A DNA stretch of 64,000 nt from an uncultured Thalassospiraceae bacterium (GTDB lineage Bacteria; Pseudomonadota; Alphaproteobacteria; Rhodospirillales; 2-02-FULL-58-16), in the NCBI GenBank assembly GCA_964632795.1, contig CAZWEZ010000003.1, positions 3,922 through 67,921 on the forward strand. Direction: 5' to 3'. Numbering within the stretch: position 1 is the stretch's first letter; every line of letters begins with the position of its first letter. A program made the position numbers and the translations under genes. The notes beneath the pieces were generated by a model that ran no database searches, was not told the origin of the DNA, and worked only from the letters and a program-made list of their open reading frames with translations. This document shows positions 4,349 to 25,674 of this stretch, in pieces.

Positions 4349-4966
4349 ATGATCAATATCAACAATGCTACGCACGAACACATTTGCCCAGGCTCGCATG
4401 GCCATGCGTTCGAGGTGAAGAAAGGCGAATACTTTCGTTTTACCGACCTGGCAGGCCAGCAACCGGTCGATTTCTGGGCATTCAACAAGCAAGATCCGAT
4501 GGAGCACCTCTCGGTTTGTCATACACGGGTCGCGAATCTCAGCATGGAGGTCAAGCCGGGACAGTCCGCAGTCACGTCGAAACGCCGGCCTATCGTGACG
4601 ATGATCGAGGACAACTCCCCGGGACAGCACGACATGCTGCTGGCCGCTTGTGACATCACGCGTTTTGAGACGCTCGGCCACGAAGGCTATCATCGCAACT
4701 GTCAGGACAACATGCATGAGGCGCTCGGTAAACTCGGCATCGAGCTACCCTTCTCGCCCCAGCCATGGAACCTCTTCACTCACTTCCCTTGGACGTCGGA
4801 CAAGAGGATCGAACTGCTTTCACCAGATACGAAGCCAGGCGATAGCATCGTGTTCCGGGCGGAGATGGATTGCATTGTCGCGATCTCAGCCTGCCCGCAG
4901 GACGTCACCCGGATTTGCGGCGACGAGAACACGGACGTCAAGGTTGAAGTCGGAGTCGTCAAATAG
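4349..4966 (+). CDS. DUF1989 (urea-carboxylase-associated-type) family protein
   Basis: GHAFEVKKGEYFRFTDLAGQQPVDFWAF...HDMLLAACD...KPGDSIVFRAEMDCIVAISACPQD matches the DUF1989 beta-barrel family pattern. The RBS-like sequence aaaggaaaag lies upstream of the ATG. Confidence 0.7.
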   Translation: MININNATHEHICPGSHGHAFEVKKGEYFRFTDLAGQQPVDFWAFNKQDPMEHLSVCHTRVANLSMEVKPGQSAVTSKRRPIVTMIEDNSPGQHDMLLAACDITRFETLGHEGYHRNCQDNMHEALGKLGIELPFSPQPWNLFTHFPWTSDKRIELLSPDTKPGDSIVFRAEMDCIVAISACPQDVTRICGDENTDVKVEVGVVK

Positions 4967-6002: not shown

Positions 6003-6157
6003 GAATGTCGCCTCTTGGCAACCGGGCATTTCCCCTTCAAATGACCGCTGTCGGACTCACAGCGGACCCGTGTTGAGGCTGACGATTTCGGTGACTGTTA
6101 ACGCGAAGCTACCATTTGTCCACGACACAGCCGCTGCACGGTGCTACAATAACAACC

Positions 6158-6583
6158 ATGGCTATCGTTGATCCTAACCGCCAGCGAATAACATCGCCGA
6201 CGATCGGCGACCGGTATCATCCCGATTTCTGTTCTGACGGCTGGTCGGCTCGCGGTGAAATGTATGTTGGCGGGCAGATCCCGATTGCGGCCGATGATAC
6301 GGTTTTGGCGCCGGGTGATGTCGAGGGGCAGGCAAGTTTTGTCTTTGACCGTCTGCGCAGTGTGTTGCGGGAAGGCGGCGCAGATCTCGACGATCTCGTG
6401 AAGCATAACCTCTTCCTCGTCGACGATTCGGGATTGGCCGACGTTGCTGAGAACTTCCACAGAATATCGCAAGTATGGAGCGAAATGGCGCCGGACGCTT
6501 GCCCCGCGATGACGCCCATGCGCGTACACGAACTGCCGGTGACCGGAGCCCTGGTCCAGACCGATGGAATCGCGCTGAAGTGA
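6158..6583 (+). CDS. RidA/YjgF/TdcF (endoribonuclease L-PSP) family protein
   Basis: MYVGGQIPIAADDTVLAPGDVEGQASFVFDRLRSVLREGGADLDDLVKHNLFL is the typical Rid-family core. The ORF opens at TTG 6116 and the first ATG is at 6158. Confidence 0.7.
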   Translation: MAIVDPNRQRITSPTIGDRYHPDFCSDGWSARGEMYVGGQIPIAADDTVLAPGDVEGQASFVFDRLRSVLREGGADLDDLVKHNLFLVDDSGLADVAENFHRISQVWSEMAPDACPAMTPMRVHELPVTGALVQTDGIALK

Positions 6584-6626: not shown

Positions 6627-7529
6627 ATGATCAGCAACCCTGTGCCCTGGCCCGATGGCGCGAAATGCGCGTGTGCCATTACCTTTGACATCGACACCGA
6701 TAGCATTCTGCATCTCGAACATGGCGATCGCGCGCCGACAATGCTGTCGACCATGTCGTGGCTGAAATATGACGAGGTCGCGGTTCCGCGGATTCTAGAG
6801 ATGTACCGGCGCTACGAGATAAAGCAGACATTCTTCTATCCGGCGTGGTGCATGGAACGCTATCCGGCTTTGGTCGACATGATTCTCAAGGATGGCCATG
6901 AGATCGCGGCACATGGCTACCTTCACGAGAATCCGAACCAACAGAGCAAAGAGAAAGAACTCTATTGGTTTGAACGGCAAATAGAGACCATTCGCAAAAT
7001 GACCGGACAGAAACCTCGCGGATGGCGCGCGCCGCTCTACAATTTCTCAATATACTCGCTCGACAACCTGATCGATCAGGGGGTGATCTACGACGCCAGT
7101 CTGATGGGCGACGATATTCCCTACGTTTTGCGAACGTCATCGGGCCAGGTCATCGAGCTGCCGAGCCATTGGGGAATGGACGACTGGCCGCACTACACCC
7201 ACTCAATCGATATGAACTACATGATGCCAATCAAGGCGCCCAACGAGGCAATGAATGTCTTTATGTCGGAATTCGAGGCCATGTACGAATATGGCGGTCT
7301 CTGGGTGACGACCTGGCACCCATTTGTCTCCGGCCGGCTGGCGCGATGCGCCCGGATCGCAAAGATGATCGAGGAGATGCAGAACCGTGGCGGCGTCTGG
7401 TTCGCGACCCTGGAAGAGATCGCCAAACACGTTCAAAAATGCATCGACGACGGCTCCTGGACACCCCGGATCGACGACCTTCCGTACTATAAAGAACGGA
7501 TTCCGGAATTGCCGGAAGCAGCCGAATAA
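6627..7529 (+). CDS. Polysaccharide deacetylase / PuuE-like divalent-metal hydrolase family protein
   Basis: PWPDGAKCACAITFDIDTDS...EIAAHGYLHE...WRAPLYNFS matches the NodB-fold deacetylase pattern. A strong RBS (ggaggaagcataa) precedes the ATG. Confidence 0.7.
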   Translation: MISNPVPWPDGAKCACAITFDIDTDSILHLEHGDRAPTMLSTMSWLKYDEVAVPRILEMYRRYEIKQTFFYPAWCMERYPALVDMILKDGHEIAAHGYLHENPNQQSKEKELYWFERQIETIRKMTGQKPRGWRAPLYNFSIYSLDNLIDQGVIYDASLMGDDIPYVLRTSSGQVIELPSHWGMDDWPHYTHSIDMNYMMPIKAPNEAMNVFMSEFEAMYEYGGLWVTTWHPFVSGRLARCARIAKMIEEMQNRGGVWFATLEEIAKHVQKCIDDGSWTPRIDDLPYYKERIPELPEAAE

Positions 7530-7732: not shown

Positions 7733-7781
7733 CTAGTGTCCTGGATCCTAAATGCCACGAACTTAGGATCCAGGGCACTAG
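7733..7781. terminator. 19-bp-stem hairpin between convergent genes. It is also a compact member of the repeat family seen at 53895-54160.
   Basis: ctagtgtcctggatcctaa (7733-7751) pairs with ttaggatccagggcactag (7763-7781) with one mismatch and an 11-nt loop. It overlaps the stop of the minus-strand amidohydrolase gene. The core cctaaatgccacgaacttagga recurs at 54128-54149. Confidence 0.5.
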
Positions 7782-9220
7782 TGAACCGGCAGACAGAACG
7801 GGGCTATTTCGTCGGCCGTTCGCTTCGCCCAATCCATGTCGGGCACCCGCGCGAGGGCGCGTTCCTGCCCGGCTTGCAAACGGTCCAGGGCGTCGTTCTG
7901 ATCGATCGTCTGGACCTCGCCGTCCTTGACCATCAGCTCGCCGCCGACATAGACATCGCGGATCGCGGCGGCGACGCCGGAATAGACCAGGGTCTTCAGC
8001 GGATCGCGCAGCGGCCGCATCGATGGATGGGCGAGATCGACGAGCACGATATCCGCCGTCGCGCCGGCCGAGAGGCGGCCGAGATCGTCCCGGTTGAGCG
8101 CTTTGGCCGCGCCCAGAGTCGCAATCTCGAAGACATCCTGGGTCTTGAGCAGGTCGACGTGGCCGGCGGCGACCTTCGAGATCAAGCCCGCGATCCGCAT
8201 CTCCTCGATCATGTCGTGGGGATAGCAATCGGTGCCGAGCGCCATGTTGATCCCGGCCGCGCGATAGCCGCCGAGGCTGCGCATCATGTCGCCCCACTGC
8301 GCGAAGGCGCGGGCGCAGTGCACCACCGTCGCGCCGGAGCGGGCTAACCGCTCGAGGTCCTGCTTCTCGTGGTGGTTCACCCACGGGTGCTGATCGATAT
8401 TTATCACATGACCAAGGAGCACGTTCGAACCCAGCACGCCGATGTCGTCGAGCCATTCGATCGGCGTCTTGCCGGTGCGGCGGACCATCTCACGGAACTC
8501 CATGACCGACTGGGCGGCATGGGTATGCAACGGAATGCCGCGGGTTTCGGCAGCTTCCTTGCACTTCAAGAACAGCTCTTCGGTACAGGTATCGGCCTGC
8601 GCGGCACCGACCATGCCATGCAACCGCCCGCTCGGGTGCCGCTCCGCTTCGTCAATCACCTCCAGCGCCTTGTCGAGATTGGCGAGGCCCTCGCTTTCGT
8701 GCCAGGTATAGGCGAGCGTCTTGCCGTCCGGCGTGTGCCAGTGTCCGGACTGTATCATCGGACAGGCATAGGTGCGGATCCCGATCTCGGCGAGGCAGTC
8801 GATCCAACCTGGGAACGGCAGGCCCGAGCAGTAGAGCTCGGCCATGGTGGTACAGCCGCTCTTCAGCAGGTCGCAGGCCGAGGCCTGGGTCGCGGCGATG
8901 GCCGAATCGTCGTCTTCCTGGAGGAGCCAAGTGTATTCGAGGAGCTGCGTCATCCACATATGCTTGCTGGCGAGGTCCTCGAAGAAACCTTTGCCGTGCA
9001 TTTCCATATAGGCGTGGAGGTGCAGGTCGAGGAGGCCTGGCAGGACGAGTCGGTCGCGGCCGTCGATCGTGTCGGTCGCGCCACCCTCGTAGTCTTTGCC
9101 GACAAACGTTATCTTACTGCCGGTGAACGCCACGTCGGCCCCTTTGAGGTAAGTGTGACCGCCGCTCGTCGCGTCGTAAGCCACGACCCAATCGGCGTTC
9201 TTGATAACCGTCGTGTTCAT
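7778..9220 (-). CDS. Amidohydrolase-superfamily deaminase/chlorohydrolase-type enzyme
   Basis: NADWVVAYD...LVLPGLLDLHLHAYME (HxH metal motif) and ...LGTDCYPHD. The length (480 aa) and layout are typical of the guanine/atrazine/MTA-deaminase group. The RBS gaggaggg is upstream. Confidence 0.8.
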   Translation of the reverse strand: MNTTVIKNADWVVAYDATSGGHTYLKGADVAFTGSKITFVGKDYEGGATDTIDGRDRLVLPGLLDLHLHAYMEMHGKGFFEDLASKHMWMTQLLEYTWLLQEDDDSAIAATQASACDLLKSGCTTMAELYCSGLPFPGWIDCLAEIGIRTYACPMIQSGHWHTPDGKTLAYTWHESEGLANLDKALEVIDEAERHPSGRLHGMVGAAQADTCTEELFLKCKEAAETRGIPLHTHAAQSVMEFREMVRRTGKTPIEWLDDIGVLGSNVLLGHVINIDQHPWVNHHEKQDLERLARSGATVVHCARAFAQWGDMMRSLGGYRAAGINMALGTDCYPHDMIEEMRIAGLISKVAAGHVDLLKTQDVFEIATLGAAKALNRDDLGRLSAGATADIVLVDLAHPSMRPLRDPLKTLVYSGVAAAIRDVYVGGELMVKDGEVQTIDQNDALDRLQAGQERALARVPDMDWAKRTADEIAPFCLPVH

Positions 9221-9477: not shown

Positions 9478-9813
9478 TGGGGGTGCTCCTTTGTGGACTT
9501 CGGCAATCCACGGAGTACCCCCTCTTCCCTTTCTGACACAAACACTCGTCCATCACCGCATAATCCACAATTTGGCTTTGTGGGGCCCGGCCATGCTATT
9601 TTGAATTTTGAATGAGGGTCAAGTTGCTTGGGAAATGTCGGCCTACCTCGGCCTCGACGGCGCCCCCACCCCGTTCCGGCGGAGTGACCGGGCGACTCGT
9701 CACTACCGGTAAAATACGGTAACTGCGGAAAAATACCGGTTAACTAAAGAAACTTTGAATACCCATAAAGACATACTTCTGAGTTACTTATGGGGGGTAT
9801 TTTGCCTGAGATA

Positions 9814-9842
9814 TTGACATTGAATTGTATTCAACATATTTT
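9814..9842 (+). promoter_or_regulatory. Sigma70-like promoter candidate with a palindrome in the spacer
   Basis: TTGACA (9814-9819), a 17-nt spacer, then TATTTT (9837-9842). The spacer contains the palindrome ttgaattgtattcaa (9820-9834). The site lies in an AT-rich non-coding stretch about 370 nt upstream of the ABC operon. Confidence 0.25.
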
Positions 9843-10210
9843 TTTAACCATACGGGGAGTTGGTTCTTGGCGTGAATCGGGGCGACGCGGATCTCCGGCC
9901 TGAGACGAGAACGAACACAGAGGCTGATAATCCGTGCCGGATCGCACCAATCGCAGAGGGGCGCGGGCCCGGGTGATGCACCGTTCGTCCGAGGCCGGCG
10001 CAAAGCCTGTCACCGAGGCTCTTCCACAGCAGGACCGAGGCCTGGAAAGCTCTGCCGGAGAGCACTTTGCCGATCGCTCCGTAGGGTCGTGCGCCGATCG
10101 ACCAGCACGATCGGGAAGAACGCGTAAGCGGTAACGGCGGCTCCGAGGCGTCTCCGAGGTTTACCGCGCTTGGTTGGATGAGTCCCTTTTGATTGGGGGG
10201 GCGCGCCATT

Positions 10211-11257
10211 ATGACAGAGGTCAGTGTTGAGTCGACACGGCGGAACGGGCAAAAGAGCGAGCCGTCCGACGACACTGTCCTGTCGGTCAAGAACCTCAAG
10301 ACCTATTTCGACACCCCCGCCGGGGTCGTCAAGGCGGTCGACGACGTCAGCTTCGACCTGCGTCGAACCGACATCCTGGCGATCGTCGGAGAGTCGGGAT
10401 CGGGCAAGAGCGTCACTGCCCAATCGATCATGAAGCTCATCGCCGTCCCGCCGGGTCGCTATGCCGGTGGCCGGATCGATTTGGACGGCCTCGATCTGTT
10501 GTCGTTGAACGAGAAGGCGCTCGAGAGGGTCCGTGGCGAACGGATTTCGATTATCTTTCAAAACCCGCGCGCGGCGCTGAATCCGTCCTTTACCGTCGCT
10601 GCGCAGTTGATCGAAACGCTGCGTCATCATGATCGCAGCCTGTCGAAGGGCGAGGCGGCGAAGCGCGCGGTGGCTCTGCTTCGCGCCGTCGATTTCCCCG
10701 ACCCCCAGCGGGTCGCCGCCAGCTACCCGCACCAAATGAGCGGCGGCATGTGCCAGCGCGTCGGCTTCGCCCTCAGCATGGCATGCGAGCCGGAAATCCT
10801 TATCGCCGACGAGCCGACGACGGCGCTCGACGTGCTGGTCCAGGCGACGATCCTGCTGCTTCTCAAGCGGGCCCATGTCGAGCGCGGCCTGCCGATCATT
10901 CTGATCACCCACGACTTCGGCGTCGTCCGCGTGCTGGCGATGTGGGTCATCGTGATGTACGCCGGCAAGATCCAGGAATCCGGTCCCGCCGAGACCGTCC
11001 TGTCGGATCCCCAGCATCCCTATACCAAGGCGCTCATCTACTCCGTTCCCAAGCCCGACGAGCCAGCTCGGCGCCTCTATCAGATAAAGGGCCAGCCGCC
11101 GGATCTGTCACGCCTACCGTCGGGCTGCAGTTTCGCCGATCGGTGCGAGTTCGTCATGGCGAAATGCCGGACCACGGCTCCCGAGCTTCATCGTTCGCCG
11201 ACGGGCTCGACCGTGCGCTGCCATCTGTTCGACGACGCGTCTGAGGGACCGCCATGA
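10211..11257 (+). CDS. ABC transporter ATP-binding protein, oligopeptide/dipeptide (DppD/OppD) type
   Basis: Walker A GESGSGKS, signature MSGGMCQRV, Walker B ILIADEPTTALD, and the C-terminal oligopeptide-type extension (PQHPYTKALI...CSFADRC). The ORF opens at TTG 10193 and the ATG is at 10211. Confidence 0.85.
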   Translation: MTEVSVESTRRNGQKSEPSDDTVLSVKNLKTYFDTPAGVVKAVDDVSFDLRRTDILAIVGESGSGKSVTAQSIMKLIAVPPGRYAGGRIDLDGLDLLSLNEKALERVRGERISIIFQNPRAALNPSFTVAAQLIETLRHHDRSLSKGEAAKRAVALLRAVDFPDPQRVAASYPHQMSGGMCQRVGFALSMACEPEILIADEPTTALDVLVQATILLLLKRAHVERGLPIILITHDFGVVRVLAMWVIVMYAGKIQESGPAETVLSDPQHPYTKALIYSVPKPDEPARRLYQIKGQPPDLSRLPSGCSFADRCEFVMAKCRTTAPELHRSPTGSTVRCHLFDDASEGPP

Positions 11258-12327
11258 CGCGGTCGCTGCTCGAAATCCGCGGTCTCAGCAAGTCGTTTCC
11301 GATTCGCGAGGGGACCTTTGTGCGTCGAAAGATCGGCGACGTCGTCGCCATAGATGATGTCGCCTTCGATGTCTTCGAAGGCGAGACTCTCGGCTGCGTC
11401 GGCGGGTCCGGGTCCGGCAAATCGACGCTCGGACGCCTCATCCTCAACCTGATACCGGCGGATCGCGGGTCGGTGCGGCTCGATGGCGTCGACCTGGTCG
11501 GGCTCTCGGCGACCGAGATGCGGCGCTACCGGCGGGGCCTTCAGATCGTCTTTCAGGACCCGCTGCATTCGCTCAATCCACGGCGCACGGTGGCCGAGAG
11601 CGTCATCCGTCCGCTGCTCAATTTCGATGTCCCGCGCGAGGAGGCCAAGGCGCGGGTCGACGAGCTGCTCGACATGGTCGGTCTCAACCCCGCCCACGCC
11701 AACCGCTATCCCCACGAGTTCAGCGGCGGCCAGTGCCAGCGAATCGGCATCGCCCGGGCGCTGGCGCTGAAACCGCGTTTCCTGTTCCTCGATGAACCGG
11801 TCTCGGCGCTCGACGTGTCGATCAAGGCTCAAATCCTCAACCTGTTAAAGGACCTTCAGGAGGCTTTGAATCTGACCTACCTGTTCGTCGCCCACGACCT
11901 CAAGATCGTGAAGCACTTCTCGGACCGGATCATCGTTCTCTACCACGGCCGGATCATCGAGATCGGCGGCAGCGACGAGGTCTATCACGAGCCGAAGCAT
12001 CCCTACACGCAATCGCTCCTCGACTCGGTCCTCAACCTCGACGGCGGCGATGCCTGGGAACGGGCCGCGAAACGAACCGGCGTGCTCGCCGATAACGAAG
12101 ATCGCTACAGCGCCTTGCGCGCCGCAGCCGATGCGCGGACCGGCTGCATCTATGCCGGCACCTGCAGCGAGCGGTTCGAACCATGCGCGTCGATCACGCC
12201 CGCGCTGTGCGCAACGAAGCCGGGGCATTGCGTTGCGTGCCACCTTTACGATTCACCCGACAACGCGTCCGCGGATGCTGATGCCGAGTGGCGCGACGAC
12301 GAGCGGACATATCAGCACATTGCATAA
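11254..12327 (+). CDS. ABC transporter ATP-binding protein, DppF/OppF type
   Basis: Walker A GGSGSGKST, signature FSGGQCQRI, Walker B FLFLDEPVSALD, and KHPYTQSLL. The start overlaps the previous stop (ATGA). Confidence 0.85.
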   Translation: MTRSLLEIRGLSKSFPIREGTFVRRKIGDVVAIDDVAFDVFEGETLGCVGGSGSGKSTLGRLILNLIPADRGSVRLDGVDLVGLSATEMRRYRRGLQIVFQDPLHSLNPRRTVAESVIRPLLNFDVPREEAKARVDELLDMVGLNPAHANRYPHEFSGGQCQRIGIARALALKPRFLFLDEPVSALDVSIKAQILNLLKDLQEALNLTYLFVAHDLKIVKHFSDRIIVLYHGRIIEIGGSDEVYHEPKHPYTQSLLDSVLNLDGGDAWERAAKRTGVLADNEDRYSALRAAADARTGCIYAGTCSERFEPCASITPALCATKPGHCVACHLYDSPDNASADADAEWRDDERTYQHIA

Positions 12328-12343
12328 TGGGAGGAAGCAGACG

Positions 12344-13990
12344 ATGCAACGATTGAAAGATCTCGCGGGCCCAACCAGCCGCGATCGGTTGCGGCGCGGC
12401 TTGCTGTCCGGGTGTCTGGCCCTGATCGCGGCCTTCGCCGTCCAAGTAATGGCTCTCGATACGACGGCCAAGGCCCAGATGAAGACGCTTGTCCTCGCTA
12501 TCGAGGGCGAGCCGAGCCGGTTGGACCCCCACACCCATGTCCTTTGGCTCACCTATCGAGAGACGTACCTCATCTATGAGAGCTTCGTCCAACAGGACCT
12601 GACCATCAAGGACGTCCCGCGTCCACCGGTGATACCGGCGCTTGCCACGAGCTGGGACGTCTCCGACGACAAGCTCCACTACACCTTTCACCTGCGCGAA
12701 GGGGTAAAGTTCCATGACGGGACACCGTGGAACGCGGAAGTGGCGAAGTTCAACTTCGACCGTGTGCTCGACAAGGACTTCGAATATTTCTACCCCCTCG
12801 CGAACGGCTTCAACACCTGGTGGCACGGGGATATCGACAACTACGAGGTCGTCGACGAGTACACGTTCCGGGTCAACATGAAGCAACCGAACTCCGAATT
12901 CATCCGGCGCCTGTCGCAAGGTGGCTTCGGCTCGTCGGGCATGATCAGCCCCGAGGTCGTCAAGAAGTACGGCAACGAGGAGGCGCACCTTCATGCCGTG
13001 GGTACCGGTCCGTTCAAGCTCGTCGAGCGCGTCTTCGGCGAAAAGATCGTTCTGGATCGAAACCCGGATTATTGGGACGAGAAGCGGATCCCGAAGGTCG
13101 ATCGGCTGATTATTCGCGGCATTTCCGACGTCGCCACCCGCGAGCTCGCGCTGCTGACCGGGGAGGTCGATATCATTGCGACGCCGTCGCCCGATTCGGT
13201 CGACTATCTCCGGACCCAGGGCATGGTCGTCGACATGGCTCCGATCACGACGATCTACAACCTGTGGGTCAACGTGCGCATGAAGCCGCTCGACGACCAC
13301 CGTGTCCGCAAGGCGCTCTACATGGCCATCGACCGCGAAGGCCTGTGCAAGTACCTACGGCGCGGCCAGTGTTCGCCGGCCTACAGCATCCTCAACTATG
13401 GTGGACCGGGCTACGATCCGAACTACAAGCCGTTCTCCTATGATCCGGCAGGCGCCAAGAAGCTCTTGGCCGAGGCCGGCTATCCGGACGGCTTCGAGGT
13501 CCGCGTCGACTGGACTCCGGGTGGCGCCGGCGACGTCAACACGGTTGCCGACGCCGAGTGGATCCAGCGCGACTGGGCGCGGATCGGCGTCAAGCTGAAC
13601 ATCGAGCTCTTCGAGATCAGCACGTACATGGATACGATGTCCAAGGGCATGCGCGAGGGCACCGGCTTCATGCAGCTCTCATGGGGCGAAAGCGCGTTCC
13701 ACTGGCTCGACGCCGTCATCTCGCCGGCTGCCCTGCCGCCCAACGGGTTCAACGCCGGCTATTACGACAATCCCGTGGTCGGCGAGCTTCTGGCGAAAGC
13801 GCGCGCCGCGCTGACCGAAGACGAGATGGTCAAGCACCTCCGAGAGATTCAACGGATCGTCATCGAGGAGGACACCGCCTTCATCCCGACCCACAGCCCG
13901 TGGGGCGTTTACGCCATGCGGCCCAATGTGAAGGGGTTCGTGCTCGCGCCACAGCACTGGCACGATATGGCGATCGTCGACAAGGAGTAA
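12344..13990 (+). CDS. ABC transporter substrate-binding protein, family 5 (peptide/nickel/opine type)
   Basis: There is a signal-like N-terminus (MQRLKDLAGPTSRDRLRRGLLSGCLALIAAFAVQVMA), then LVLAIEGEPSRLDPH...ALATSWDVSDDKLHYTFHLREGVKFHDG. The RBS gggaggaag precedes the ATG at 12344. The upstream part of the ORF (12050-12343) overlaps the previous gene. Confidence 0.85.
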   Translation: MQRLKDLAGPTSRDRLRRGLLSGCLALIAAFAVQVMALDTTAKAQMKTLVLAIEGEPSRLDPHTHVLWLTYRETYLIYESFVQQDLTIKDVPRPPVIPALATSWDVSDDKLHYTFHLREGVKFHDGTPWNAEVAKFNFDRVLDKDFEYFYPLANGFNTWWHGDIDNYEVVDEYTFRVNMKQPNSEFIRRLSQGGFGSSGMISPEVVKKYGNEEAHLHAVGTGPFKLVERVFGEKIVLDRNPDYWDEKRIPKVDRLIIRGISDVATRELALLTGEVDIIATPSPDSVDYLRTQGMVVDMAPITTIYNLWVNVRMKPLDDHRVRKALYMAIDREGLCKYLRRGQCSPAYSILNYGGPGYDPNYKPFSYDPAGAKKLLAEAGYPDGFEVRVDWTPGGAGDVNTVADAEWIQRDWARIGVKLNIELFEISTYMDTMSKGMREGTGFMQLSWGESAFHWLDAVISPAALPPNGFNAGYYDNPVVGELLAKARAALTEDEMVKHLREIQRIVIEEDTAFIPTHSPWGVYAMRPNVKGFVLAPQHWHDMAIVDKE

Positions 13991-14005
13991 CTCTGGGCGC
14001 ACGAC

Positions 14006-14037
14006 AATCCCGTCGATGGTGATCCATCGACGGGATT
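14006..14037 (+). terminator. Perfect 14-bp-stem hairpin just after the SBP gene (intra-operon attenuator/stabiliser candidate)
   Basis: aatcccgtcgatgg (14006-14019), a tgat loop, then ccatcgacgggatt (14024-14037), followed by ccctttgcc. It sits between the SBP stop (13990) and the permease start. Confidence 0.5.
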
Positions 14038-14061
14038 CCCTTTGCCATTCTCGAGGTGGTC

Positions 14062-15006
14062 ATGCTCCGATTCATCGTCTGGCGGCTGGTCCAGGTCATA
14101 CCTGTCCTGATCGGGGTTTCGTTCATCGTCTTCTCGGCCCTCTACTTGATCCCGGGCGACATCGCCAACACCCTGCTGGCGATGTTCTACACCGAGGAGC
14201 GGGCCGCACTGCTGCGCGCCGAGCTCGGCCTCGACCGCCCGATGCTGGTGCAATACGGGACCTGGTTGTGGGGGGCACTGCAGGGCGATCTCGGGAAATC
14301 GCTGATGATGCGGCTGCCCGTGATGACGGTCCTTCAGGACAAGGTCGTGAATTCTCTCATTCTGACCGGCGCCAGCCTGCTGATCGTCATCCCGGTCAGT
14401 TTCCTCTTGGGCACGACCTCTGCGGCACGGTTCCGCACATCCTTCGACCGGTTCACGGTTTTCTTCTCGCTGCTGCTCGCCAGCATGCCCGTGTTCTGGC
14501 TCGGAATCGTCCTTATGTACCTGCTCGGCGTCAAGCTGCCGCTGTTTCCAATGTCGGGCATGTACAACATGGCCAACCCTGGCGGGTTCTGGGACCTCAT
14601 GCACCATCTGACGCTGCCGGCGATCACCACTGCGGCGACCTCGGTCGCCATCGTCACCCGGGTCACCCGCGGCGCTATGCTCGACACCCTGAACCAGCCC
14701 TATATCCTGGCCGCCCGGGCGCGCGGACTGCCGCGCTCGCGTGTGATCTACGTCCACGGCGTGCGCAACGTCCTGCCGACCTTTTCGAATATGATCGGCC
14801 TGCAGATCGGCTATCTGTTCGGCAGTGCGATATTCTCCGAGATCATATTCAACTGGCCGGGCATCGGACTGCAGCTCTACCAGTCGATCATTCATCGCGA
14901 CCCGACCATGGTCCAGGGCTGTGTCCTTGCCGTGGCCGTCATCTTCGTGCTCGGCAACATGACGGCCGACGTCATTGGCTATTGCCTGGATCCGGCGCGG
15001 AAATAG
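14062..15006 (+). CDS. ABC transporter permease, DppB/OppB type
   Basis: MLRFIVWRLVQVIPVLIGVSFIVF is the typical DppB N-terminus, followed by multiple TM segments and an EAA-like loop (ILAARARGLPRSRVIYVHGVRN). GTG 14056 is an alternative start. Confidence 0.85.
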   Translation: MLRFIVWRLVQVIPVLIGVSFIVFSALYLIPGDIANTLLAMFYTEERAALLRAELGLDRPMLVQYGTWLWGALQGDLGKSLMMRLPVMTVLQDKVVNSLILTGASLLIVIPVSFLLGTTSAARFRTSFDRFTVFFSLLLASMPVFWLGIVLMYLLGVKLPLFPMSGMYNMANPGGFWDLMHHLTLPAITTAATSVAIVTRVTRGAMLDTLNQPYILAARARGLPRSRVIYVHGVRNVLPTFSNMIGLQIGYLFGSAIFSEIIFNWPGIGLQLYQSIIHRDPTMVQGCVLAVAVIFVLGNMTADVIGYCLDPARK

Positions 15007-15021
15007 ACGAGGCCGAACGCA

Positions 15022-15960
15022 ATGCCCACGGAGACGACCCAAGACACCGGATTGCCGGCGCGGATCACGGCCGACGAAGTCGAGCGCGCCCGCTCGACCC
15101 TGTATTTCGTCTGGCGCGGGGTCCAGAACGATCCCTATGCGCTCGCTGGCGCGCTCCTTATCCTGATGTTTGTCGTCTTCGCCCTGTTCGCGCCGTTCAT
15201 CGCACCCTACGGTCCCAACGAGGCGAACCCCGTTTTGCGGCTCCAGGGCATCGGGACCCCGGGACACCTTCTCGGCCTCGACGCCCAGGGTCGCGATGTT
15301 CTCACGCGGCTGATCTACGGGTCGCGCTACTCGCTCGTCACCGGGGTCGCACCGGTGATATTGGGCACCCTGTTGGCGATACCGCTCGGCATGATCGCCG
15401 CCTATTATGAGCGCCTCGGCTATATCATCATGCGCTTCATGGACATCCTGTTCGCGTTTCCCATGGTCCTGCTGGCGATCATGCTGTCCTTCTTCATGGG
15501 CCCCGGGATTGAGAACCTCGTCATCGCCCTCGTCGTCGTGCTGGTTCCCTACAACACACGGGTCGTCTATGTGCAGGCGCTGGCCCAGAAGGAGCTCGGC
15601 TATATCGAAGCGGCGCGCGCCGACGCGACCAGCGACTTCAGGATCCTGTTCGTCGAGATGCTGCCCCATGTGGTCTCGGCCTCGGTAGTCTATTCGATGA
15701 CTATCGTCGGCACCATCGTGGTCACAGCGGCGGGTCTGAGCTTTCTCGGCCTCGGGGTGCAACCGCCGACGCCCGAATGGGGCATCATGACCAGCGACGG
15801 CCGGACCGTGCTTCATATTGCGCCTCATTTGTCGACCCTGCCGGGACTAGCTATTTTTCTCATGGTTACCGGGTTCAATCTTCTCGGCGACAGCCTGCGC
15901 GACGCGCTCGACCCGCGGACGCGGTTGATCCGCGCGGCGGTGACGAAGGTCGAAGCCTGA
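15022..15960 (+). CDS. ABC transporter permease, DppC/OppC type
   Basis: LLGLDAQGRDVLTRLIYGSRYSL and IEAARADATSDFRILFVEMLPH are typical DppC motifs. Multiple TM segments are present. Confidence 0.85.
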   Translation: MPTETTQDTGLPARITADEVERARSTLYFVWRGVQNDPYALAGALLILMFVVFALFAPFIAPYGPNEANPVLRLQGIGTPGHLLGLDAQGRDVLTRLIYGSRYSLVTGVAPVILGTLLAIPLGMIAAYYERLGYIIMRFMDILFAFPMVLLAIMLSFFMGPGIENLVIALVVVLVPYNTRVVYVQALAQKELGYIEAARADATSDFRILFVEMLPHVVSASVVYSMTIVGTIVVTAAGLSFLGLGVQPPTPEWGIMTSDGRTVLHIAPHLSTLPGLAIFLMVTGFNLLGDSLRDALDPRTRLIRAAVTKVEA

Positions 15961-16014
15961 GGACGCGCGCGACGATGGGGCCGGCCGCATCGTTAGTGAT
16001 CAGGAGGCAAGACA

Positions 16015-17247
16015 ATGACAAGACAACGCTTGATGCCAGCCTATCACTGGGACTGGAGCATGCCGGTGCCCTTTTCCCAGGGCTGGAAGACCGATGGCCT
16101 GATCTTCGTCGGCGGCCAGATCTCGGCGGATGCCAAGGGCCGCACCGTCGGTGCCGGCGACATCGCGACGCAGACCCGCAATGTCTTCGAGTTTATCAAG
16201 GCGGTGCTCGACGAGGCCGGCGCCGACCTTTCCGACATCGTCAAGCTCAACACCTACTATCAGTTCGAGGGCGAGGGCGAGGCGATCACGGAGTTCTGGG
16301 AGGCGATGACCGCGGTGCGGATGGAATACCTCGCCGATCCCGGTCCCGTGGGCACGGCGGTGCGGGTCAGGGGCTTCGCCTATGAGGACCTGTCGATCGA
16401 GATCGAGGCCATCGCCTCGACCGGTCAGGAGAAGGTGCGGCTGATGCCGGCGGGCCATTGGGATTGGAGTATGCCGGTCCCCTTCTCGCAGGGCTGGAAG
16501 GTCGGCGACCTGATCTTCATCGGCGGCCAGATCTCGGCGGACGATCAGGGCCGGACCATGGCGCCCGGCGATATCGACGCGCAGACGCGGAACGTCTTCG
16601 AGTTCATCCGGCGCGTCCTCGCCGAGGGCGGCGCCAACCTCGACGATCTGGTCAAGCTGAATACCTATTATCGCTACGAAGGCGACGCACTGACCAAGTT
16701 CTGGGAGAACATGACACGGGTCCGGATGGAGTACATCGCCGATCCGGGTCCCGCCGCGACCGCCGTGCGGATCAACGGCTTCGCCTATGAGGACCTGCTG
16801 ATCGAGATCGAGGGCATCGCCTATACGGGGGGGGACAAGCAGCGGCTGATGCCGGCCAATCACTGGGACTGGAGCATGCCGGTCAAGTTCTCCCAGGGCT
16901 GGCGGGTGGGCGACCTGATCTTCGTCGGCGGCCAGATCTCGGCGGATGCCAAGGGCCGCACCGTCGGTTCCGGCGACATCGCCACCCAGACCCGCAATGT
17001 GTTCGAGAACATCCGCAAGGTCTTGCGGGAGGCGGGCGCCGACATGGAGCAGGTCGTGCGGCTCAACACCTATTACCATTTCGAGGGCGAAGGGCGGGAA
17101 ATCACCGATTTCTGGGAGCAGATGACCAAGGTCCGCATCGAGTACCTGCCCGATCTGGGGCCGGTCGGGACCGGCGTTCGGGTCAACGGGTTGGCCTACG
17201 AGGACCTGCTCATCGAGATCGAGGCCATCGCCTATGTCGGCCCGTGA
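16015..17247 (+). CDS. Single polypeptide made of three tandem RidA/YjgF-family domains
   Basis: The 410-aa ORF carries three collinear units: aa 1-141, 142-276 and 277-410 (nt 16015-16437, 16438-16842, 16843-17244). Each begins RLMPAxHWDWSMPV(P/K)FSQGW, contains (V/I)GGQISAD...TQTRNVFE(F/N)I, and ends EDL(S/L)IEIE(A/G)IA. The RBS aggagg is upstream. Confidence 0.85.
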   Translation: MTRQRLMPAYHWDWSMPVPFSQGWKTDGLIFVGGQISADAKGRTVGAGDIATQTRNVFEFIKAVLDEAGADLSDIVKLNTYYQFEGEGEAITEFWEAMTAVRMEYLADPGPVGTAVRVRGFAYEDLSIEIEAIASTGQEKVRLMPAGHWDWSMPVPFSQGWKVGDLIFIGGQISADDQGRTMAPGDIDAQTRNVFEFIRRVLAEGGANLDDLVKLNTYYRYEGDALTKFWENMTRVRMEYIADPGPAATAVRINGFAYEDLLIEIEGIAYTGGDKQRLMPANHWDWSMPVKFSQGWRVGDLIFVGGQISADAKGRTVGSGDIATQTRNVFENIRKVLREAGADMEQVVRLNTYYHFEGEGREITDFWEQMTKVRIEYLPDLGPVGTGVRVNGLAYEDLLIEIEAIAYVGP

Positions 17248-17279
17248 GGCGCGGGAGACCGTCGTGCGCCAAGCCGCGT

Positions 17280-17615
17280 GGCGGCCGCTTTGACGGCGCC
17301 TATGGCGTGCTGGCCGGGCTTGAGGTGCTCGAGTGCCTGGACGATGCGGGTATCGAGACCGACCATCCGATCACTGTGACGGTGTGGACCAACGAGGAGG
17401 GCAGTCGCTTCGCTCCGGGAGCGGTGGGTTCGTCGGTTTTCGCGGGGCTGCATCGCGTTGTTCATCGCCGAAGTCTGTCCGAGCGACATGATCTTCGTGC
17501 CGTGCCGCGAGGGCATCAGCCACAATCCCGCGGAATATGCAGAGCCGCGAATCTCGCCTTCGGCGCCCGTGTCCTTGCCGCCGCCTTGCTGAAACTGGCA
17601 ACGAAGAGCGATTGA
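17280..17615 (+). pseudogene. Decayed M20-family N-carbamoyl-amino-acid / allantoate amidohydrolase gene (internal deletion plus frameshift)
   Basis: GGRFDGAYGVLAGLEVLECLDDAGIETDHPITVTVWTNEEGSRFAPGAVGSSVFAG is a mid-protein motif block. It joins, via another frame (MIFVPCREGISHNPAEYAEP), to a C-terminal tail (AFGARVLAAALLKLA). About 300 codons of a normal ~410-aa enzyme are missing. Confidence 0.7.
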
Positions 17616-17651: not shown

Positions 17652-18728
17652 ATGGGCTATCCGAGCTGGGAAGAGATCCGCGCCACTTCCATCGAGAACA
17701 CGTTCTCTCACATGAACCCGTGGTACGTGCCGATGATCGAGGCCGACATGCCGACCTTTATGGCGCGCCCCCACGTGACCGATCCGGCGGGACTCGAAGG
17801 CGCCGATATCGTAATCATCGGCGCGCCCTATGTTGCGGGCTGGTCAGAATATGCCGGCGTCGGCAAGGAGGAATGGCTGGCGGCTCCCAAACGCGTCCGT
17901 CAGCAATCGATCCGCTATGGCTCGGGCTACATCCAGGATTTCGATCTGGACCTGTTCGAGCATCTTAAAGTCGTCGATTACGGCGATGCCGAGATCCCGC
18001 CTGAGAGCCTGACCACGCCTACCGCGGATAACATTCTCAAGGCTCAGGCGGCTGTGGAGAAGAAGGTAAATGACGTGCTCGCCGTCGGTGCGATTCCGAT
18101 CGTCATCGGCCAGAACTCGCCGTGCGGCTCCTTCGCCGTCGCCAAGGCGGTCTCGGAATCGACGGAGGGTAGGATCGGCACGATCAGCCTGGACACGCAT
18201 TGGGACATCGCCCCGCTAGACAAGCTGACGATGGACCCGCGCATCGCCGGTTCGGACAGTTGGCTCAACAAGACGTATGAATTTCTCGACAACTTCGACT
18301 ACCCCAACCTGATCGAGATCGGCCCGCGCGGCATGCTTGAGAATAAGGAGGCCGTGCGCCAGTTCCTCAGCAACGGCGCGCATTTCTACCCAATGTGGAA
18401 GGTGCGTACCGAGCTTGGCATCGACAAGCTGTGTGAGAATCTGCGTCACGCGTACGATGGCACGGACAAGGTATACGTTCACTTCGACATGGACGTGATC
18501 GGCGGCGCGGGGCCGGCCCCGGGCGATATTCTCGGCGATCTCGCCGAGCCGATCGGCATGACCGACTACGAAGTGCTCCGCATCGCCCATGAGATCGGTA
18601 ACCGCGGCCTGGCGGCGCTCTCCTTCATCTGCATCCCGCCCGGCTCGGCTGTGATCTACCGGCTGATTGTGTACGTGATTGTCTACCTGATGGCCGGACT
18701 TGTCATCGCGCGAAGCCAGCCGCGCTGA
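17652..18728 (+). CDS. Arginase/agmatinase/ureohydrolase-fold protein (divergent metal-site motifs)
   Basis: ISLDTHWD (the DAHxD-type motif) and VHFDMDVIGG (the DxDxxD-type motif) are present with the right spacing. The GGDHS position reads GQNSP. The RBS aaggag precedes the ATG. Confidence 0.65.
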   Translation: MGYPSWEEIRATSIENTFSHMNPWYVPMIEADMPTFMARPHVTDPAGLEGADIVIIGAPYVAGWSEYAGVGKEEWLAAPKRVRQQSIRYGSGYIQDFDLDLFEHLKVVDYGDAEIPPESLTTPTADNILKAQAAVEKKVNDVLAVGAIPIVIGQNSPCGSFAVAKAVSESTEGRIGTISLDTHWDIAPLDKLTMDPRIAGSDSWLNKTYEFLDNFDYPNLIEIGPRGMLENKEAVRQFLSNGAHFYPMWKVRTELGIDKLCENLRHAYDGTDKVYVHFDMDVIGGAGPAPGDILGDLAEPIGMTDYEVLRIAHEIGNRGLAALSFICIPPGSAVIYRLIVYVIVYLMAGLVIARSQPR

Positions 18729-18768
18729 ACGCGGTCTTCTGCACGCTCAGTCTAGAAGGTCCGCTTGT

Positions 18769-18836
18769 GGCTAGAAGCAGCGGTTCCAGGCTACCACAAG
18801 CCTCGTCAGGTTTACCACAGCAAGCAGACGTCAAAC
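18769..18836 (+). repeat. Dispersed repeat, copy B (3' half only)
   Basis: ggctagaagcagcggttccaggctaccacaag...cagcaagcagacgtc aligns with 3740-3810 of copy A. Confidence 0.65.
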
Positions 18837-18921
18837 CCGAATGTCGGCTTTCTGGGCCTTTGGATGGGCTGTGAATCGTTCATACCCGTCCTCGGTCACG
18901 ATAACCCCTATTTTCCAGATC

Positions 18922-20112
18922 TCACGACCACGGGCCGTCTTGCCCCCCGGTCAGAAGTTCCACCCCGTCGGCGGTGACCAGTAGGTTCTGTTCCGCTTGG
19001 GCCACCCCGCAGCCGGCGAGGGACAGAGTCCGTTCGACAGTCAGGTACATGGCCTCCTCGACCTCCATGGTCTCGTCTGGCAGCATCCAGGGCCGTTCCC
19101 AGCCGAGGCCCAGTCCGTGTCCCCAGAGGACTGGATAGACCGCCCCAATCTGATTTGCCCGGGGCGGGCCGTCGACGGCGACGTCCATGTCGCGCAGCGC
19201 GCCGTCGCCGGTCGTCACCAGGTCCTTGACCGCTATCCCCGGGCGAATCGCCTCGATGACCGTGTCCAACGCCCGGTGCAGGGTGTCGAGAAGACGTCGC
19301 TGGTCGGCCGTTGGCGCGCCGACCACCGAAGTTCGTCCGAAATCGGAATAGTAACCGTTCCCGACCACTCCGAGGTCGAGGCGCACCAGGTCGCCGGCCG
19401 CCAACGTGCGGGGGCTGTAACCGGGAAGTGGGTTAGAGGTGTAGGAACCGCACGTCTCCCCCGACGACGCGGCGGCGAAGTAGACCCCGGCACCCTCCGA
19501 GGCGACGACGTTGAACGCCGCGCCGACCGCCTCGGCTTCGCTCCGCCCCGGTTCCAGCGCCTCCAGGAAGGCGGTTACCGCACGGCGGCTGGTGGCGCAG
19601 GTGGCGCGGACCAGGTCCCGCTCGGCCGGGCTCTTGATCCTTCGCATGGCGGCGATCTCTGCGTCGGCGTCGTTCCAGTCGACGGTCGGCAGGGCGGCCT
19701 CCAGCCGCCGCCAAAGGCTGGTTGGCAGGACATCGGCACCGATCAAGGCAAGCGGCCCGCCGCCCAGTCCCAGGTCCTCGATGCCGGCGACCACCTCGCC
19801 GACGAAGTCCCGGGGATAGACGATGTCGGTGGCGGCGATGGTCGCGGTGTCGTATTCGGGAGTGGAGACGAACAACCGATCCCCTCCATCGGCGGCCAGC
19901 AAGTAGACCGTGTGGGCCCGACCGCTCCAGTAGGGCGGGTTGTCGGGCATGTTGACGTAGGCTTGGTAGTGGCCGGTCAGGTAAAGAACGTCGGCGGATC
20001 GGTCGAATGTGAAGCCTCCACGCGAGACGACCAAGGCACCGGCAAATCCCCGTTCGCCCAGTCGTCCGGCCAGCCGCTTCTGGCGGTCACGGTATTCGGC
20101 GAGTTCTATCAT
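18922..20112 (-). CDS. M24-family creatinase/Xaa-Pro peptidase-fold hydrolase (paralog 1)
   Basis: It has a creatinase/prolidase N-domain (ELAEYRDRQKRLAGRLGERGFAGALVVSR) and a pita-bread C-domain (GDLVRLDLGVVGNGYYSDFGRT...HGLGLG...EEAMYLTVE). The ORF extends to 20178. I chose the start at MIELAEY (20112). Confidence 0.8.
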   Translation of the reverse strand: MIELAEYRDRQKRLAGRLGERGFAGALVVSRGGFTFDRSADVLYLTGHYQAYVNMPDNPPYWSGRAHTVYLLAADGGDRLFVSTPEYDTATIAATDIVYPRDFVGEVVAGIEDLGLGGGPLALIGADVLPTSLWRRLEAALPTVDWNDADAEIAAMRRIKSPAERDLVRATCATSRRAVTAFLEALEPGRSEAEAVGAAFNVVASEGAGVYFAAASSGETCGSYTSNPLPGYSPRTLAAGDLVRLDLGVVGNGYYSDFGRTSVVGAPTADQRRLLDTLHRALDTVIEAIRPGIAVKDLVTTGDGALRDMDVAVDGPPRANQIGAVYPVLWGHGLGLGWERPWMLPDETMEVEEAMYLTVERTLSLAGCGVAQAEQNLLVTADGVELLTGGQDGPWS

Positions 20113-20627
20113 TTCGATGGTGCTCCGATGGTGGTGGGGCCGTAATAGAGGGCCGGCTGACATGCCGCAAGGCATCACGTTTCTGCACCTTGGGATCTAT
20201 GGGTGGAGATGTCAGGGCTGCGGCAATCCTCCCGCGAGTGGCACGGGTATCGTGGTCCGGCGCGGGGAGAAGGCAACGTCGGCGCTCACGAGCCTGATTG
20301 GTGATGCCATGGCCACCTGCAAGGGCGACACCCGAGATCGCTACGGGCGGCTTCACTGACCATTGCCCCCGTGAGTCAATTAAAGCGCCGTACAGAGTCA
20401 TCTCGGACTTCCTGGCACCCGTGGACTCCGAAGCCGCTGACGCGCCTCAGCGAGTCCCTGAGAGTCTCCTGCGGCTATTCCGACATCAGGGTAATGTCGA
20501 TGATCGGAGCCACGCCCCGAAGTCCCCGGATCATCTCCACCGAAGGACCTGCCCGGAGACGCTGTTGGGGGCCTGTCTCTTTCGCCTACGAGGCCCACGT
20601 CCTTGGCTCCCAGGGTGGCCATCGAGG

Positions 20628-20790
20628 CCGAACGTCGGCTTACGGTGGTAGAGCGGCGGTGGTCTGTGGTAGCCTGGGACCGCCGCTGATAGCCAGGACC
20701 GGACTCTGAACAACGATCACCCAGCGCAAATTCTTTCTCATCGCGATGCCGATGGTGGGAGCCGTCCACTGCATCAAGAGCGGACATTGA
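20628..20790 (-). repeat. Dispersed ~165-bp repeat, copy C (full length, inverted relative to A and B)
   Basis: The reverse complement aligns end to end with 3647-3810 (see copy A). Confidence 0.75.
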
Positions 20791-21027
20791 AGGGCCTCAC
20801 GTCGCCCTAGGGGAATGGCGATCCTACCCGATTTCTCATGGCACCTCAGGCGGATTTCACCTAACGTTGCAGTGACAGTTTCGGAAAACGCTGAAATCCA
20901 CGTCTGCCATCTACGCCGACACGGGCACCGACGGTAATAGACGTTCCATTTCGATGGTGATGGCCGCCATTTGCGGCGTCGCGTCCATTCTGCTTGGCCT
21001 GGTCGTGCTATGAAGATGAGGAAGGGC

Positions 21028-22668: not shown

Positions 22669-22744
22669 CCATGGTGAAATATATTATTTCCCGGCAACTT
22701 GACATTGATCAACAATCGGTTGATTGATTCTTACATAGTGTTCG

Positions 22745-22936
22745 TTGCTGACCATCATTAACGATATTCTCGATTTCTCGAAAATCGAGGCCGGCAAGCT
22801 AGACCTGGAGCAGATTCCGATCTCGGTTCGCGACGCCGTCGAGGGAGTCGCCGAAACCCTCGCCCCCAATGCCCGGAGCAAGAACATCGGGCTCAGCGCC
22901 TACGTGGATCCCGACATCCCCGATGCCGTTTTGGGC
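22745..22936 (+). pseudogene. Internal fragment of a (hybrid) sensor histidine kinase, truncated at both ends
   Basis: LTIINDILDFSKIEAGKLDLEQIPISVRDAVEGVAETLAPNARSKNIGLSAYVDPDIPDAVLG is the end of a HisKA domain and the start of a HATPase domain. There is no N-terminal sensor or H-box and no ATP-binding remainder. It abuts the IS fragment at about 22940. Confidence 0.7.
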
Positions 22937-22939
22937 GGC

Positions 22940-23161
22940 CAGGTAGCAGTAACCGACCAGCAGCATCTGGATCATCAGCTCCGGATCGACCGCTGGGCAC
23001 CCCGTGTGACTGTAGAAAGGCGAAAGCTCGGCGCGAAGCCAGCTCAGATCGAGAACCCCGTCGATCCGACGCAACAGGTGATTGGCCGGGATGCGCTCAT
23101 CGAGATTGAACTCGTAGAAAAGTCGATCCTGTCGATCGACCGCTTGCCCCATCATCGCCAT
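22940..23161 (-). mobile_element. IS5/IS1182-family transposase N-terminal fragment (DUF772-type)
   Basis: DRQDRLFYEFNLDERIPANHLLRRIDGVLDLSWLRAELSPFYSHTGCPAVDPELMIQMLLVGYCY is the conserved N-terminal domain of IS5-group transposases. The DDE catalytic part is absent. Confidence 0.7.
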
Positions 23162-23290
23162 TCCCCCGTCTCGAAAAACGCTGAGACAAAGGAATCACGT
23201 ATGCCAAACCCTGACAACCGAGTTCTTCAACACTCTCAGCCACAACCGGACTCTGGAATTGAGGCGGCACTTGGCCAACTTAACTCGATA

Positions 23291-24334: not shown

Positions 24335-24484
24335 TCTTGAACTCTCTGCTATTTAGTTTGGTGAAAATGAAGATGATGCTTCGGCTTCGAGAAATCGAAT
24401 ACGATTAAGTTGCGCCTGAAGTCAATAAGCTGCTCATCTCCAACTTCTCATGTTGTGAAAGTCTCATGCATCTGGTTCCTCCAG

Positions 24485-25624: not shown

Positions 25625-25674
25625 CTGCGAACCCTTATTCAGATAGGCTCAAGGCTTCACCAGCGTCGTAACGC

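Follow-up and report, generated by a model that had tools for sequence, protein, structure and literature searches.

Three Rid/YjgF domains in one chain: an Arg105-less 3x-RidA protein predicted to fold as a covalent pseudo-trimer

A gene encoding three tandem Rid/YjgF domains was analyzed computationally in a 64,000-nucleotide stretch of contig CAZWEZ010000003.1 from an uncultured Thalassospiraceae bacterium; this whole stretch is referred to below as the window. The product of the gene, termed 3xRid, is a chain of about 45 kDa that would fold in the manner of a normal Rid homotrimer assembly. The explanation that accounted best for the results, and which appears reasonably probable, is that 3xRid is a 3x-RidA pseudo-trimer with a pocket unlike that of RidA, that it plays an accessory role in the catabolism of nitrogen-rich compounds, and that its three units have been homogenized. 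The coordinates and residues are collected in Table 1.

Pfam analysis of the 3xRid protein revealed three PF01042 domains with a total score of 205.5 bits (cutoff 27.3), and units 1, 2 and 3 scanned singly scored 72.4, 68.0 and 75.0 bits against the same cutoff, which places each of them in the superfamily. The element RLMPA begins at amino acids 5, 142 and 277, so that the repeat period is first 137 and then 135 amino acids, and at the DNA level the gene consisted of three direct repeats with start-to-start distances of 411 and 405 nt and 67–80% identity. An earlier note on this DNA, made from the sequence alone, had described three Rid domains in one 410-amino-acid chain, a 55-nt identical run shared by units 1 and 3, and a more diverged unit 2. 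The domains and the exact identity of the run could be confirmed, the run being the longest of its kind in the gene. Amino acid identity was 73% between units 1 and 2, 76% between units 1 and 3, and 69% between units 2 and 3; unit 2 was the most diverged, but slightly.

A model of the 3xRid protein was built with AlphaFold2 from a 108-sequence alignment. The mean predicted local distance difference test (pLDDT) value was 95.4 and the predicted template modeling (pTM) score was 0.94, with no segment of low confidence; for a three-domain chain, such a pTM score indicates that the domains are placed confidently with respect to one another. The single Rid chains RutC, AmnE, PH0854, YabJ and UK114 each covered one third of the model with template modeling (TM) scores of 0.81–0.95 normalized to the target, which assigns the predicted domains to the Rid (chorismate-mutase-like) fold. 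Foldseek comparison against the PDB gave the FkbO/Hyg5 chorismatases 4bps, 5a3k and 5ag3 as the best full-length matches (366–372 aligned columns, 421 for 5a3k_A; TM 0.61–0.67 normalized to the target; 13–16% identity). The whole-chain pTM together with this full-length alignment revealed a three-fold, trimer-like assembly in the predicted model, and the three independent, non-interacting domains that the earlier note had named as the contrary outcome were not seen in it. Judged from the model, 3xRid very probably forms a compact covalent Rid pseudo-trimer with three equivalent pockets. The pseudo-trimer suggested in the note was therefore upheld by the model but was not a new idea, since Niehaus et al. 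2015 had already proposed "presumably covalently linked trimer units" for tandem triple Rid proteins (PMC4433059). No solved chain with three Rid domains was found by a sequence search of the PDB.

Juneja et al. are said to have described, in 2013/14, a chorismatase monomer with a pseudo-three-fold symmetry resembling the RidA trimer. Only one site is known to be used in chorismatase. Chorismatases possess a YjgF-like domain (PMC3949708), but their repeats are no longer recognizable to each other by sequence, whereas the 3xRid units are still 69–76% identical and carry equivalent motifs. Sequence comparison did not place 3xRid in the chorismatase family (FkbO/Hyg5/XanB2), given the low identity and PF01042 as the sole Pfam family above cutoff. 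Cyanuric acid hydrolase AtzD was proposed by Peat et al. 2013 to derive from three concatenated YjgF-type monomers; its Ser-Lys dyads are situated in the central barrel, in contrast to the Rid pockets, which are found on the outside at the subunit interfaces (PMC3758960). 3xRid resembles AtzD and barbiturase in being a single chain that, as proposed for those enzymes, concatenates three YjgF-type monomers, and its gene context likewise involves C-N hydrolysis of nitrogen-rich compounds. However, the Toblerone-fold cyclic amide hydrolase 5hy2 was a weaker structural match (TM 0.48, 13% identity) and no Pfam match to that family was present in the 3xRid protein, which did not support membership.

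Alignment of the units to E. coli RidA, by phmmer and by hidden Markov model, revealed that Arg105 is absent from all three units, while the Glu120 equivalent is kept and Tyr17 is replaced by Phe. The earlier note had reached the loss of this Arg from a hand alignment reading G-T-A; the loss was correct, but the alignment was off by one, the RidA motif ARS aligning to V-G-T. The label "Arg-less" likewise holds for the Arg105 column but needs a qualifier, as a conserved Arg is located four residues downstream, at the position of RidA Glu109. This Arg lies on the same strand and may, by beta-strand alternation, face the same side as position 105. A conserved P..H-W-D-W motif occupies the place of the RidA loop N-A-P-A-A-I-G, and its residues H11/H148/H283 and W12/W149/W284 were at least 70–90% conserved. 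A small insertion before the second helix and the covalent trimer chain further distinguish 3xRid from RidA, whereas PF01042, the fold, the GGQ loop and the Glu120 and Tyr17 equivalents are held in common with RidA/YjgF/TdcF/UK114.

Among 735 domains of 269 proteins, the Arg105 column contained Gly in 246, Ala in 147, Ser in 85, Thr in 63 and Val in 44. Arg was present in six, three of them in one protein (P0253), so that the Arg-less state is typical of the recovered 3x clade and not special to this gene. The subfamilies Rid4–Rid7 are similar in missing the catalytic Arg and in being predicted not to be imine hydrolases, but Rid4 and Rid7 have Trp at the Arg105 position (PMC4433059), whereas the clade described here has Gly, Ala, Ser or Thr; Trp occurred in 9 of the 735 domains and in no unit of 3xRid. 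According to Niehaus et al., Arg-less Rid subfamilies presumably serve other functions, and their activities remain unknown (PMC4433059). Because of the Arg105-less pocket, 3xRid is probably not a 2-iminobutanoate/2-iminopropanoate deaminase, and we hold with good confidence that canonical 2-iminoacid deamination is not its activity.

The triple architecture was found to be widespread. When 5.8 billion proteins were searched, full-length matches to 3xRid came from over 100 clusters of 395–430 amino acids, at identities between 39% and 95%. Among genomes sampled at one per species, 221 confirmed 3xRid stretches were found, including records titled complete chromosomes, from Alphaproteobacteria, Gammaproteobacteria, Dehalococcoidia, Planctomycetota, Terriglobia and one cultured Peribacillus. 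When 1.84 billion cluster representatives were searched with a single unit, proteins of 380–435 amino acids with three matched stretches made up the majority of the 150 best matches. In cultured Mesorhizobium, closed plasmids encode an annotated triple "RidA family protein". The architecture had been named "3x-RidA" by Niehaus et al. 2015 (BMC Genomics 16:382; PMC4433059) in one sentence, with EF_0115 of Enterococcus faecalis as the example. Three Rid domains in tandem in one polypeptide, and the same covalent-trimer interpretation, are common to that description and to 3xRid; the likeness to EF_0115 was judged by description, and the clade of the present gene is almost wholly Arg-less with the HWDW motif. 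No Enterococcus member appeared in cluster look-ups of ten distant 3x proteins, no use of the term "3x-RidA" beyond Niehaus et al. was found in the literature searched, and no report of an assigned function for any 3x-Rid protein was found. The architecture is thus not new and is common in bacteria, and the gene belongs to the known 3x-RidA architecture. Rare two- and four-domain Rid fusions were also mentioned by Niehaus et al. (PMC4433059), and two relatives with more than three Rid-type stretches were noticed here, namely P0166 (803 amino acids, five matched stretches) and P0232 (four stretches). Some genomes contained two or three paralogous 3xRid loci (L023/L036 on CBDAPE010000016.1, L021/L034 on CBDFML010000012.1, and L044). 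On one contig two paralogous loci were about 13 kb apart, one with HpaB and the other with PF01522 and HpaB.

A Rid-trimer-like fold leads one to expect three inter-domain pockets, which would be essentially identical in this protein. The candidate site residues were the same in all three units save for three positions (V/A/V, G/A/G and A/A/G), so the pockets should be equivalent, contrary to the three non-equivalent sites envisaged in the earlier note. As far as can be read from their residues, non-equivalent sites do occur in diverged-unit relatives such as P0102 and P0115, whose units are 28–35% identical to each other and differ at the HWDW, downstream Arg and Glu positions. Unit identity within one protein was bimodal, being about 0.3–0.5 in 57 proteins and 0.6–0.99 in 46. 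When the query was compared with homologs of less than 85% identity, same-index and cross-index unit identities came out equal (0.738/0.721, 0.595/0.591 and 0.514/0.513). A neighbor-joining tree with bootstraps, constructed from a reduced set of a broader and more diverged sample, contained single-index clades of up to 11 proteins, which indicates that the family includes an old triplication whose units are orthologous by index. In the same tree, the query units grouped with single-domain proteins, namely P0133 (68%) and the Arthrobacter and Paracoccus 1x forms (53–60%); these groupings suggest that transitions between 1x and 3x forms, homogenization, or both, recurred in the family.

The gene conversion between units 1 and 3 that the earlier note had considered could be substantiated. 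Over 18 consecutive codons the two units are identical (permutation p = 0.0009), and this tract was absent from the 89%-identical relative at locus L001, in which the longest identical run was 16 nt. The 55-nt tract is a recent gene conversion specific to this lineage. Intragenic conversion of this kind helps to keep the three units alike. Separately, a Dehalococcoidia clade (P0008, P0032, L012) had units 87–95% identical in one protein, far more uniform than those of the window gene, with 87–89% nucleotide identity between units in L012 (10001-11230); this indicates, from sequence comparison, a very recent homogenization or re-triplication in that clade.

Analysis of the gene neighborhood revealed that 3xRid lies at the end of an Opp/Dpp-type ATP-binding cassette (ABC) operon, much as the earlier note had stated. 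At L085 (79% identity), the canonical operon consisted of an ATZ/TRZ-type amidohydrolase, five ABC genes, 3xRid, PF01522 and DUF1989. The neighbors at L001 were amidohydrolases, PF01522, a helix-turn-helix–cupin regulator, five ABC genes, 3xRid and DUF1989. By tblastn, a PF01522 gene was located directly downstream on the same strand, with a gap of 39–56 nt, in 22 of 84 loci; the neighbor gene caller was crude and under-counted this family (15 by Pfam). Of the 64 loci whose flanks were complete, 35 had a PF01522 gene within 10 kb of 3xRid, and the identity of a Rid protein to its counterpart in the window was correlated with that of its PF01522 partner (r = 0.80). Among solved structures, the uncharacterized M. 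smegmatis protein 3rxz was the closest to the PF01522 partner; a peptidoglycan deacetylase (3qbu) and allantoinases of the PuuE group (1z7a, 3cl6) were more distant. Further recurrent arrangements were flavin reductase-3xRid-HpaB, 3xRid-PF01522-HpaB, and a toluene/phenol multicomponent monooxygenase followed by 3xRid-PF01522. In Mesorhizobium, 3xRid is followed by an ectoine-hydrolase-like M24 gene whose start coordinate is the end of 3xRid, and the locus also contains an amino-acid ABC system, an aspartoacylase-family gene and a Thr/Ser dehydratase. The 1x form of cultured Arthrobacter lies beside flavin reductase, HpaB-like and cyclase-family genes, and that of cultured Paracoccus beside M20, adenine-deaminase-like and cyclase-family genes. 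Nothing relevant on a cluster of Rid, polysaccharide deacetylase and HpaB was found in the literature searched. In L082 (P0059 locus), a flavin reductase-3xRid-HpaB module is preceded, at a distance of a few kb, by microcompartment shell genes (BMC, EutN/CcmL, CsoS1D_N; 2529-4819) with an aldehyde dehydrogenase and an aminotransferase. Relatives of DUF1989 carry the annotation "urea-amidolyase-associated protein", and the DUF1989 gene of the window adjoins an HTH_3 regulator (5123-5620, minus strand).

The ureohydrolase (arginase family), M20 and M24 neighbors to which the earlier note had drawn attention are present, but the adjacent M20 open reading frame (ORF) is an internal gene fragment, and the three families accompanied 3xRid in only 3, 1 and 5 of the 84 loci, respectively. 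These downstream genes were accordingly rejected as definers of function; the partners conserved with 3xRid are the PF01522 hydrolase, the ATZ/TRZ-type amidohydrolase, DUF1989 and the ABC transporter. The recurrence of C-N bond hydrolases, often together with oxygenases, suggests that a nitrogen-rich compound, cyclic or aromatic, is catabolized.

A mechanism can be outlined from these observations. An imported nitrogen-rich compound, of the cyclic amide/amidine or aromatic-amine type, would be catabolized with 3xRid as an accessory enzyme. The partner enzymes, namely the PF01522 C-N hydrolase, the ATZ/TRZ-type amidohydrolase and DUF1989, or elsewhere HpaB-type two-component monooxygenases, would produce an unstable imine- or enamine-type intermediate carrying no alpha-carboxylate, which 3xRid would most likely hydrolyze or tautomerize. 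The responsible pocket would be that of the large clade to which 3xRid belongs; this clade exists in 1x and 3x forms, with Arg105 absent, Arg at the Glu109 position, a P..HW(D)W loop before the Tyr17-equivalent Phe, and the Glu120 equivalent kept. The architecture, the predicted fold, the pattern of residues, the synteny and the conversion tract were observed directly, whereas the position of the pockets, the type of substrate and the chemistry are inferred. Action of 3xRid on such a C=N-type intermediate, alongside the PF01522 and amidohydrolase enzymes, is offered as a tentative assignment that may well prove wrong.

Several points weigh against the accessory-enzyme pseudo-trimer explanation. 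The pTM score derives from prediction and perhaps partly echoes Rid trimer structures learned by the network. The placement of R117 and the HWDW loop as the lining of the inter-domain pocket is a putative one, read from the alignment. Rid7 of S. enterica is inactive as an imine hydrolase, and Arg-less Rid subfamilies are without known activity (PMC4433059). Every partner enzyme scored below its equivalog cutoff in NCBIfam, and the pathway consequently could not be named. In addition, the Planctomycetota/Terriglobia clade mostly occurs without the PF01522 partner, so the function may differ between clades.

These points were weighed together with three other readings. That the triple repeat is an assembly artefact of a true gene with one or two units is scarcely credible. 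DNA repeats of 75–77% identity that include the 55-nt run could in principle mislead short-read assemblers, but a divergence of about 23% leaves more than enough difference between the units for them to be assembled correctly, the reading frame runs unbroken through all three units with a Shine-Dalgarno sequence and a stop codon, and the same architecture of about 410 amino acids recurs in the independent clusters, genome stretches, complete chromosomes and closed Mesorhizobium plasmids described above. Because of this recurrence the gene is real, as the earlier note had supposed. It also seems quite improbable that 3xRid is an ordinary RidA (2-iminobutanoate/2-iminopropanoate deaminase) fused three times, which would shield pyridoxal 5'-phosphate (PLP) enzymes from 2-aminoacrylate. 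Relatives go under the name "enamine deaminase RidA" in the IMG database, the units keep both the GGQ loop and a Glu120 equivalent, and RidA-type PH0854 (61.8 bits) was among the best single-chain PDB sequence matches. The whole protein passes the RidA model TIGR00004 with 174.5 bits against a cutoff of 106.25; however, only the three-unit sum does so, since the single units scored 62.5, 58.1 and 63.6 bits, far below this cutoff. The replaced Arg is essential to imine hydrolysis by RidA, its change to Ala nearly abolishing the reaction (PMC4433059), and the genes clustered with 3xRid encode C-N hydrolases and oxygenases rather than threonine dehydratase or other PLP enzymes of that kind.

A somewhat stronger alternative, although still unlikely, is that fusion freed the protein for other chemistry, as in chorismatase and AtzD/barbiturase, so that 3xRid would itself catalyze ring opening or a lyase-type reaction, or would have no catalytic activity and serve in ligand binding or regulation. 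The full-length structural matches to chorismatases and to the Toblerone-fold hydrolase are in its favor, as are the absence of a known activity for Arg-less Rid subfamilies and a context rich in enzymes of cyclic amides and amidines (PuuE-related PF01522, ATZ/TRZ, cyclase family and ectoine-hydrolase-like M24). However, identity to the chorismatase and AtzD-type enzymes is 13–16% and Pfam detects PF01042 alone; the GGQ loop and the Glu120 equivalent are symmetric in all three units, unlike in chorismatase; and functional-looking 1x members of the clade exist, which argues that fusion is not required for function. The reading of 3xRid as a homogenized pseudo-trimer with an accessory catabolic role was preferred over these alternatives.

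The window also carries traces of rearrangement around the locus. Its PF01522 and DUF1989 genes are situated upstream of 3xRid, and the M20 remnant marks a breakpoint at the place where PF01522 and DUF1989 normally follow 3xRid. A second Rid-type ORF (6116-6583) aligned without gaps, at 61% identity, with residues 270-413 of P0102, covering the last strand of unit 2, the linker and unit 3, and no trace of a counterpart of units 1 and 2 could be found upstream of it. This ORF is the remaining third of a second 3xRid gene, and its interpretation as an ordinary single-domain paralog was rejected by the same alignment. The PF01522 partner in the window (6627-7526) was 80% identical to that of L084, the P0115 locus (9284-10189), whereas the full-length 3xRid proteins were 39% identical. 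This difference fits an arrival of the PF01522 gene with the truncated P0102/P0115-type gene and not with the intact one. Downstream, the dense set of C-N and amino-acid enzymes at 17652-28646 may represent a guanidino- or amidino-compound catabolic island.

Table 1. Features of the 3xRid gene and of the surrounding window, with the residues of the three units equivalent to RidA site residues
Feature	Position	Strand	Remarks
3xRid gene, three tandem Rid/YjgF (PF01042) domains	16015..17247	+	ORF with ATG start and stop codon, 410 amino acids
Shine-Dalgarno AGGAGG	16002..16007	+	7 nt before ATG at 16015; read directly from sequence
Unit 1 (amino acids 1-141)	16015..16437	+	H11-W12-D13-W14, G33-G34-Q35, G113 at Arg105 column, R117, E129
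Unit 2 (amino acids 142-276)	16438..16842	+	H148-W149-D150-W151, A248 at Arg105 column, R252, E264
Unit 3 (amino acids 277-410)	16843..17244	+	H283-W284-D285-W286, G385 at Arg105 column, R389, E401
55-nt identical tract, unit 1 copy	16098..16152	+	gene-conversion tract; equals 16914-16968
55-nt identical tract, unit 3 copy	16914..16968	+	equals 16098-16152
Equivalent of RidA Tyr17	F20 / F157 / F292 (units 1/2/3)		conservative change
Equivalent of RidA S30-G31-Q32	G-G-Q in all three units		
Equivalent of RidA Arg105	G113 / A248 / G385		
Equivalent of RidA Cys107	A / A / G		
Equivalent of RidA Glu109	R117 / R252 / R389		
Equivalent of RidA Glu120	E129 / E264 / E401		
Opp/Dpp-type ABC operon: two ATPases, SBP_bac_5, two permeases	10193..15960	+	directly upstream of 3xRid; conserved in the clade of at least 67% identity
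ATZ/TRZ-type amidohydrolase	7778..9220	-	"chlorohydrolase family" 360 bits vs cutoff 416; conserved cluster member
PF01522 polysaccharide-deacetylase-like hydrolase (PDA)	6627..7529	+	most conserved 3xRid partner; here 8.5 kb upstream, not directly downstream
DUF1989 gene	4349..4966	+	149.8 bits; displaced here, after 3xRid-PDA in canonical operon L085
3' third (unit 3) of second 3xRid gene, truncated, diverged-unit P0102/P0115 type	6116..6583	+	155 amino acids; ends 43 nt before PDA gene
M20 carbamoylase/allantoate-amidohydrolase-type remnant	17244..17615	+	profile positions ~83-157 of ~417; overlaps 3xRid stop codon
Arginase family	17652-18728		below equivalog cutoff
M24 with Creatinase_N	18925-20178	-	below equivalog cutoff
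L-aspartate-oxidase/fumarate-reductase-like flavoprotein	20971-22668		below equivalog cutoff
GntG-like PLP aldolase	23294-24334	-	below equivalog cutoff
DDAH/arginine-deiminase-like gene	24704-25624	-	below equivalog cutoff
MR/MLE enolase	25678-26853	-	below equivalog cutoff
M20 amidohydrolase	27399-28646		below equivalog cutoff

On a wider and more speculative view, which we regard as doubtful though worth stating, the HWDW-type Arg-less Rid clade would be an enzyme class with a chemistry other than that on 2-iminoacids, acting with PF01522 (and HpaB or ATZ/TRZ) in the catabolism of N-heterocyclic, amidine or aromatic-amine compounds, and its forms would trace a route from homotrimer to asymmetric single-chain enzyme. 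If this is true, the forms along the route would comprise free 1x proteins; homogenized 3x proteins; diverged, index-orthologous 3x proteins with non-equivalent sites; and truncated 3x remnants. The function of a large Rid clade becomes accessible to concrete tests through its close pairing with PF01522, with which it co-evolves. The presence of carriers in culture (Mesorhizobium and Peribacillus, with Arthrobacter and Paracoccus for the 1x form) makes functional tests practical. Showing several stages from homotrimer through fused pseudo-trimer to asymmetric enzyme among its homologs, the family offers a useful natural model for the origin of the chorismatase and AtzD fusions.

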